Positions 8,755 through 9,348 of a stretch of DNA of 64,000 nucleotides are shown one piece after another. Numbering within the stretch: the stretch's first letter is position 1; the number at the start of each line of letters is the position of its first letter. Source of the stretch: an uncultured Gammaproteobacteria bacterium (GTDB taxonomy: Bacteria > Pseudomonadota > Gammaproteobacteria > Xanthomonadales > SZUA-36); assembly GCA_963815185.1 (NCBI GenBank), contig CAWFGC010000011.1, positions 443,618-507,617 of the forward strand, written 5' to 3'. The notes beneath the pieces were generated by a model that had not been told where the DNA came from, searched no databases, and saw nothing but the letters and a program-made list of their open reading frames with translations. Position numbers and translations under genes: made by a program.

Positions 8755-9348
8755 ATGATGAAACCAATGTTCAACAGACAAACATTCACAAGCCGGCCAG
8801 TGCTCATATCAACTTTTTTACTACTCATTCTGGGGTTCGTATCTCATTCCGCAATCGCCAACGACTGTCCCGCGGCTCTGGAATTCGCAATCACGCCGGG
8901 ACCCAATAACACTGCGATCAACACCTGCCGAAACTTTGCAATCGACGGCAAGTCCATTACCGCGAAATGCCACAACATCCAGAAGGTGTGGAAAGACACA
9001 ACGGCCGAGTGCGACAACATCGTCGCGAACGACAAGAATGGCCCATACGCGCTTTCAAACCAGGACGGCAACCTCTCATCCAGCCACGAATGTGGCGGTG
9101 CCGTGCTGGAATGGTCCAAAAAGAAATCTTCGAGCAATTCAAGCCCGGACACCTGCGAGAATTATCGCATTGACGGCAAGTACATCAAGGCACAATGCCG
9201 GAACAGAGACCAGGTATTGAAAAACACCAAGGAAAACTGTGAGAAGATTTGGTACAAGGCCAAGAATGGGATGATGATTATGGAAAATTACAGAGGCAGC
9301 CTGACCGTCAGTTGTCCACTTTGGCAGACCGATCCGCCATGCAAATGA
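8755..9348 (+). CDS. secreted Cys-rich protein with two CVNH-like (cyanovirin-N homology) half-repeats (family C)
   Basis: Signal peptide is PVLISTFLLLILGFVSHSAIA. There is an internal repeat: TCRNFAIDGKSITAKCHN...SNQDGNL and TCENYRIDGKYIKAQCRN...ENYRGSL. This resembles the CVNH pattern sC.N..l.G..L.A.C...N.dG.L. The mature part has ten Cys. Confidence 0.7.
   Translation: MMKPMFNRQTFTSRPVLISTFLLLILGFVSHSAIANDCPAALEFAITPGPNNTAINTCRNFAIDGKSITAKCHNIQKVWKDTTAECDNIVANDKNGPYALSNQDGNLSSSHECGGAVLEWSKKKSSSNSSPDTCENYRIDGKYIKAQCRNRDQVLKNTKENCEKIWYKAKNGMMIMENYRGSLTVSCPLWQTDPPCK

Follow-up and report, generated by a model that had tools for sequence, protein, structure and literature searches.

A rare, enlarged relative of the cyanovirin-N lectins, with a predicted Sec signal, on a tRNA-Leu island of an uncultured gammaproteobacterium

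The best-characterised proteins of the cyanovirin-N homology (CVNH) family, i.e. cyanovirin-N, microvirin and the fungal and fern CVNHs, are carbohydrate binders, and CVNH lectins have been studied as antiviral and glycan-recognition scaffolds. The literature still places the family in cyanobacteria, ascomycetes and ferns (PMC11064801, citing Percudani 2005), and no paper discussing CVNH in other bacterial phyla was found in the literature that was searched. The window analysed here, which is the whole stretch of 64,000 nucleotides from an uncultured gammaproteobacterium, contains a small open reading frame that a preliminary description had read as a secreted, disulfide-rich CVNH lectin next to a tRNA gene. 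The questions raised by this locus were whether the frame is a maintained gene, whether its product is a CVNH homolog, and what such a protein might do in this host. The gene and its predicted signal peptide are located as follows:

8755..9348, forward strand: coding sequence of a putatively secreted CVNH-like protein, 197 aa (list of open reading frames; Pfam CVNH, 25.4 bits; dN/dS)
8755..8859, forward strand: predicted Sec signal peptide, residues 1-35, predicted cleavage at AIA/ND (read from the sequence)

The frame encodes 197 amino acids with the stop codon within the span, exactly as described before. Comparison with two orthologs (81% and 74-79% identical) gave dN/dS values of 0.10-0.23 for the mature part, and therefore the gene is maintained, with the mature part under purifying selection; the signal peptide, compared with the same two sequences, drifts more quickly (0.4-0.8). 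That the frame might be a decaying or silent leftover of horizontally acquired DNA, with no current function, is very improbable in view of these values, the intact frame and the retention of all eight cysteines of the subfamily. The points that would fit such a leftover are that neither an SD sequence nor a promoter was recognised upstream of the frame and that the island on which it lies holds pseudogene remnants, one of them of the CVNH-like gene itself:

6274..6468, reverse strand: decayed paralogous remnant of the CVNH-like gene (search of the own genome; sequence read)

This remnant is 56% identical to residues 101-163 of the query (E 7e-18) and retains nothing beyond the linker and the beginning of repeat 2, with neither a start codon nor a signal peptide.

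The N-terminus of the maintained copy has the layout of a Sec signal peptide, that is a basic n-region and a hydrophobic core (PVLISTFLLLILGFV) followed by AIA/ND. The A-x-A layout is common to four of the four full-length homologs, where the mature part then opens with a conserved (N/S/D)xC. Judging from this pattern, the protein is expected to be exported by the Sec route and cut at AIA/ND, leaving a mature protein of 162 residues with 10 cysteines, in agreement with the secreted, disulfide-rich product that had been proposed. The genome carries two DsbA genes and a GspD-like secretin; periplasmic DsbA would form the four conserved disulfides and a fifth one in the C-terminal tail, and release might proceed by type II secretion through the GspD-like secretin.

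The mature protein is divided into the following parts:

8860..9078, forward strand: extended repeat 1, mature residues 1-73 (internal repeat; Pfam; AF2)
9076..9150, forward strand: the 'Ser-rich spacer', mature S73-D97, with the invariant Cys78 (self-comparison; AF2)
9079..9309, forward strand: extended repeat 2, mature residues 74-150 (internal repeat; AF2; hhalign, query positions 17-149)
9310..9345, forward strand: C-terminal tail SCPLWQTDPPCK, with cysteines 152 and 161 (alignment)

Both half-repeats quoted in the preliminary description were found, TCRNFAIDGKSITAKCHN...LSNQDGNL at residues 57-107 and TCENYRIDGKYIKAQCRN...MENYRGSL at residues 133-183. A BLASTP comparison of the two showed 38% identity over 69 gapless residues, and its E value of 3e-14 indicates that the internal repeat is not due to chance. 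Extended repeat 1 begins with an N-terminal helix segment carrying Cys3, which is followed by the CVNH half-repeat with Cys23, Cys37, Cys51 and the hairpin N67-Q-D-G-N-L72, while extended repeat 2 has Cys78, Cys99, Cys113, Cys127 and the hairpin N143-Y-R-G-S-L148. The repeat unit is thus enlarged to about 75 aa, as compared with about 50 aa in a textbook CVNH. The segment between the half-repeats (SSSHECGGAVLEWSKKKSSSNSSPD) is rich in serine, as had been stated (9 of 25 residues), but it is more than a spacer. In the self-comparison it pairs with the N-terminal segment (DCPAALEFA...NNTAINTC vs ECGGAVLEWS...NSSPDTC), and it is modelled by AF2 as ordered (pLDDT 91-96, with a helix predicted at 80-86); it is a structured, paralogous copy of the N-terminal helix segment.

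Eight cysteines are invariant in the subfamily and all of them are kept here (C3, C23, C37, C51, C78, C99, C113 and C127), Cys78 being present in six of the six members. The two tail cysteines (C152 and C161) are confined to the three closest members of the subfamily, and the tail is modelled with low confidence (pLDDT 56-62). In the predicted disulfide pattern, the extra cysteines could pair either as C3-C51/C78-C127 or as C51-C78/C3-C127. Tandem repeats, each with a cysteine pair and an N-x-D-G-x-L hairpin, are present as in other CVNH proteins, with R for D in hairpin 2; in size the protein departs from the family, having 162 residues and a structured 25-aa segment where about 100-110 residues and a short inter-repeat hinge would be expected.

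Several independent tests support the view that the protein is a real, divergent CVNH homolog. Pfam CVNH (PF08881) matched it in two stretches at 25.4 bits (E 2.5e-5), which is only 0.9 bits above the gathering cut-off of 24.5, and residues 56-105 aligned with profile positions 3-50; the orthologs P0002 and P0003 scored 27.9 bits, and P0004, with 22.4 bits, fell under the cut-off. An exhaustive phmmer search over 1.84 billion cluster representatives returned 21 matches and reached bacterial CVNH proteins outside the subfamily at E values of 1e-10 to 1e-4. All five of the matches beyond the subfamily that were checked proved to be bacterial multi-repeat proteins with Pfam CVNH scores of their own of 116-151 bits. 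When a profile built from six subfamily sequences was compared with the PDB, the match to tandem cyanovirin-N had an E value of 3.5e-8 and that to the monomeric protein one of 2e-4. Furthermore, when the subfamily profile was aligned by hhalign with a second profile, made independently from 62 canonical bacterial two-half units, the probability was 98% (E 3e-13) over 115 columns that run across both halves in register. The joint 68-row alignment, built from cut two-half units, contains 11 invariant columns, including C23/C37, C99/C113, N67..G70.L72 and N143..G146.L148. The NCBIfam mannose-binding lectin equivalog NF052356 scored 30.6 bits, far under its cut-off of 80; the protein is related to this equivalog and not a member of it.

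The claim that CVNH would be unusual in a proteobacterium, made on the premise that these domains belong mainly to cyanobacteria, fungi and ferns, stood only in part. A Pfam screen, too insensitive for the window's own copy, detected CVNH in two genomes out of 301 in the order and in four out of 401 in the phylum. The premise itself, although it agrees with the literature, is outdated as far as databases are concerned: a single profile search retrieved 572 CVNH proteins at E <= 1e-5; all of the 120 matches listed have a Pfam CVNH domain, and wherever a source name gives an organism, it is Candidatus Angelobacter. Non-cyanobacterial CVNH is abundant in databases, yet it occurs in about 1% or less of the genomes in the order and phylum. 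Half-repeats were counted in the canonical bacterial 4-Cys arrays (P0007-P0143), and of the 117 proteins with concordant motif counts, a sample that is biased by a length window and may include partial proteins, 49 had three, 62 had four, three had five and three had six. An odd number, found in about 44% of the sampled arrays, is hard to reconcile with an obligatory, intertwined domain of two halves.

The subfamily to which the window protein belongs is very rare. Among about 15 billion proteins, it comprises five full-length members (the window's own, three metagenomic ones and one from an NCBI assembly, where it lies on a contig of 849 bp), to which a single adhesin-like C-terminal module is added. 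A profile search of 5.8 billion clusters added solely P0005. No copy was found when a profile was run over 60 related genomes, five of them of the same genus, and the subfamily motifs found no relative among 185,579 GTDB species genomes. The adhesin-like member, P0006 (L008 8001-11045, GCA_021713265.1), is a 1014-aa lipoprotein made of about nine tandem repeats of about 95 aa, with a CVNH module of the subfamily at its C-terminus; the placement of such a module at the tip of a lipoprotein fits a function in binding or adhesion. The closest ortholog, P0003 (81%; L005 2583-2987), is encoded on a 3.9-kb metagenomic contig directly downstream of an IS110-family transposase fragment, which is consistent with mobility of the gene.

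The structure predicted by AF2 depended on the alignment, with a pLDDT of 55.8 when only four close homologs were supplied and of 91.6 (pTM 0.76) with the 68-row alignment. In the latter model, repeat 1 consists of H3-10, E23-29, E32-38, E44-50, H51-58, E63-68 and E71-78, and the order of helix, three strands, helix and hairpin occurs twice. This is the CVNH order with an N-terminal helix added to each repeat and a longer helix before the hairpin, and the triple-stranded sheet, helical turn and beta-hairpin of the CVNH family are accordingly found twice in the model. The best 25 Foldseek matches in the PDB were all CVNH proteins (best E 5e-6; probability 1.00 for the top 16), and a search of viral predicted structures gave only three significant matches, which were giant-virus proteins annotated as 'Cyanovirin-N domain-containing'. 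Hence, the CVNH assignment of the preliminary description is upheld both by a profile above its cut-off and by predicted structure. The clean superposition on cyanovirin-N, on the other hand, was not confirmed: global superposition on CVNH structures yielded TM values of 0.2-0.34 with an rmsd of 13-17 Å, for compact monomers and domain-swapped chains alike. Either the two halves would be packed unlike those of cyanovirin-N or the global arrangement in the model would be wrong, so that the prediction confirms the local CVNH topology and does not confirm the intertwined fold.

The low global TM of about 0.3 to all CVNH structures, obtained despite a confident model, also raises the question of whether the likeness might be limited to a short, Cys-framed beta motif in a protein of a different overall fold and unrelated function, representing a new family that shares a half-repeat ancestor with CVNH. 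The 75-aa repeat unit with its extra helices and extra disulfides would agree with this, as would the odd half-repeat numbers of bacterial CVNH arrays, which suggest that the half-repeat is an independent module. We consider such a new family quite improbable, however, since (i) the hhalign match spans both halves in register at 98% probability, (ii) every significant structural match is a CVNH protein and (iii) the order of secondary-structure elements is that of CVNH, twice.

The genomic setting of the gene is marked by a tRNA gene and by a repeated element:

9681-9767, reverse strand: tRNA-Leu(CAA) (ARAGORN), bounding the low-GC accessory island on its right-hand side
8490..8560, no strand assigned: REP/MITE-like palindrome of 71 nt, lying upstream of the gene (repeat finder)

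The tRNA-Leu(CAA) gene, a neighbour already noted in the preliminary description, lies 333 bp downstream of the CVNH-like gene on the opposite strand; the stretch between them (9385-9678, reverse strand) had no Pfam match. The GC content is 44-54% in the island versus about 60% in the core, with the CVNH-like gene at the right end of the low-GC stretch. In relatives, the same tRNA follows metX and is followed by other genes, with the island missing. The CVNH-like gene is thus accessory, and the island that carries it is variable. The host is an uncultured gammaproteobacterium of soil type, whose MetX is 86%, 78% and 74% identical to those of the closest MAGs, the latter two being labelled Lysobacterales.

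Nine further open reading frames of 142-220 aa are present at 1304-8474 of the window, mostly with signal-peptide-like N-termini and with many cysteines. They include the paralog pairs 3781-4335 (forward)/6556-7161 (reverse), 59% identical, and 2601-3035 (reverse)/4846-5274 (forward), 43% identical. The island by the tRNA-Leu gene is probably a place where small, secreted, cysteine-rich genes are gained, duplicated and lost. Pfam gave no match above the cut-off for any of these nine proteins, and a PDB search of four of them found none; glycan binding as the theme of the whole island, which the CVNH reading had been thought to point to, is therefore unsupported. None of the island families was found on the contigs of the CVNH-like homologs.

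The 71-nt palindrome has 22-nt arms and a 21-nt loop and occurs in four full copies in the genome, all on one contig, the other three being at 7254-7324, 9881-9951 and G000:C11:434760-434830 (8.9 kb left of the window). The metX-tRNA-Leu spacer is 308 bp long, versus 86 bp in the closest relative; since the copy at 9881-9951 is the insertion that accounts for the longer spacer, the element behaves like a REP/MITE insertion. The palindromes were also considered as attachment sites of the island, and this was rejected because one copy lies beyond the tRNA and another 8.9 kb left of the window. A relative (L009) carries another palindrome, which shares the termini GGGGTCAGA...TCTGACCCC.

Outside the window, about 4.5 kb to the left of its start and 13 kb from the CVNH-like gene, there is an unclassified, lipoprotein-type secretin of 512 aa (G000:C11:437608-439143, reverse strand; L093 11606-13144; also L006 395-1909), which scored 110 bits with Pfam Secretin and fell far under the cut-offs for GspD, SctC, PilQ and MshL. 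It is 36% identical (E 6e-88) to a secretin encoded upstream of P0004, another CVNH-like gene, at a distance of about 700 bp. The secretin is accessory: just one of the 60 relatives has it, in a DUF333-secretin-Ser/Thr kinase module that contains no island genes; in the genome of the window, the secretin and the kinase are separated by an inserted 211-aa paralog (47%) of the island protein 5533..6195. A secretin dedicated to the CVNH-like protein is a weak lead.

Taken together, we regard it as probable that the gene encodes a member of a rare, enlarged CVNH subfamily that is exported by Sec and stabilised by disulfides, that this protein most likely acts as a bivalent lectin outside the cytoplasm, and that it belongs to the accessory genes of the low-GC tRNA-Leu island. 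In the mechanism that we propose, each repeat of about 75 residues would begin with about 20 residues that form a helix segment and contribute one cysteine, and would continue as a CVNH half, i.e. a three-stranded sheet with the C-x14-C pair, a helix and the N-x-(D/R)-G-x-L beta-hairpin. By homology, the hairpin-bearing sites would bind carbohydrate, the putative ligands being oligosaccharides on the surface of another organism or a matrix polymer. The Asp of the N-x-D-G hairpin is in contact with the sugar in cyanovirin-N complexes. Hairpin 2 has an R at this position (N-Y-R-G), and therefore one of the two sites may be altered, or the sites may not be equivalent.

The loss of this Asp in one hairpin is also among the observations that would favour the main alternative, in which the CVNH fold recognises a protein and not a free glycan, and the gene product is a secreted effector or inhibitor directed against another organism. 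About nine other small, secreted, cysteine-rich genes lie nearby, with paralogs that suggest birth and death, which is typical of effector-like repertoires. We judge a protein target to be unlikely, given that the best-characterised members of the family bind carbohydrate and that no candidate target could be identified. A precedent for it does exist in the fungus Sclerotinia sclerotiorum, whose secreted, cysteine-rich CVNH effector SsCVNH binds class III peroxidases (PMC11064801). The targets of SsCVNH are themselves glycoproteins, and so the protein-target and glycan readings overlap.

A bolder proposal, which we put forward tentatively and hold to be doubtful, goes beyond the bivalent lectin and takes the window protein to be an 'unswapped' CVNH. 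Each repeat of 75 residues, stapled by an extra disulfide of its own, would then be a self-contained lectin lobe that does not swap hairpins with the other repeat. Such lobes, together with the roughly 44% of arrays with odd numbers of halves, would mean that bacterial CVNH proteins evolve and fold by half-repeats and not by two-half domains. In this host, the protein might serve as a weapon, as part of a fast-turnover arsenal of secreted, cysteine-rich proteins used against glycan-coated neighbours such as fungi or protists. On its own, the finding leaves the understanding of the CVNH family unchanged. What it adds is a rare, enlarged CVNH variant with four to five predicted disulfides in a gammaproteobacterium, set in a family that is broad in uncultured bacteria, as well as a testable structural question, i.e. 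whether the two halves are intertwined or autonomous, and a compact, highly cross-linked candidate lectin scaffold.

The known proteins most useful for comparison are cyanovirin-N of Nostoc ellipsosporum and other CVNH structures (3ezm, 2rp3, 5k79 Cyt-CVNH, 2y1s microvirin and 2jzj CrCVNH), which are the only significant sequence and fold matches among known structures. Like cyanovirin-N, the window protein has two tandem repeats, C-x14-C pairs at the positions of CV-N C8-C22 and C58-C73, an N-x-D/N-G-x-L beta-hairpin per repeat and the same order of strands, twice. Unlike cyanovirin-N, its mature form has 162 aa instead of about 101 and 8-10 cysteines instead of 4, each repeat has a helical extension (about 20 aa) and, owing to an insert of about 10 aa, a longer helix ahead of its hairpin, and the 4-residue hinge is replaced by the structured 25-aa segment; overall, sequence identity to these structures is 17-20% and TM about 0.3. 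Outside the subfamily, the proteins nearest in sequence (E 1e-10) are the bacterial multi-repeat '4-Cys' CVNH proteins (P0007-P0143; e.g. 'CVNH domain-containing protein [Candidatus Angelobacter sp.]'), likewise secreted or lipoprotein-anchored, with which the window protein has in common a third cysteine after strand 3 (the Cys51/Cys127 column is near-invariant in the 68-row alignment). Their half-repeats are about 55-60 aa long, with the fourth cysteine two residues after G-x-L, and form arrays of 3-12 halves, whereas in the window protein, with exactly two enlarged halves, the partner cysteine is found in the extension or linker instead.

SsCVNH is likewise small, secreted and cysteine-rich, has an N-terminal extension before its CVNH domain and acts outside its producer; it differs in being eukaryotic and a documented virulence effector with a protein target. 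MoCVNH-LysM/MoCVNH3 (PDB 2l9y and 5c8o), which was among the fold matches found by Foldseek, is a precedent for a CVNH protein with extra structured sequence, namely a whole LysM domain, beside its two halves. In the window protein, by contrast, what is added is a helix segment that has been duplicated and forms part of the repeat unit.
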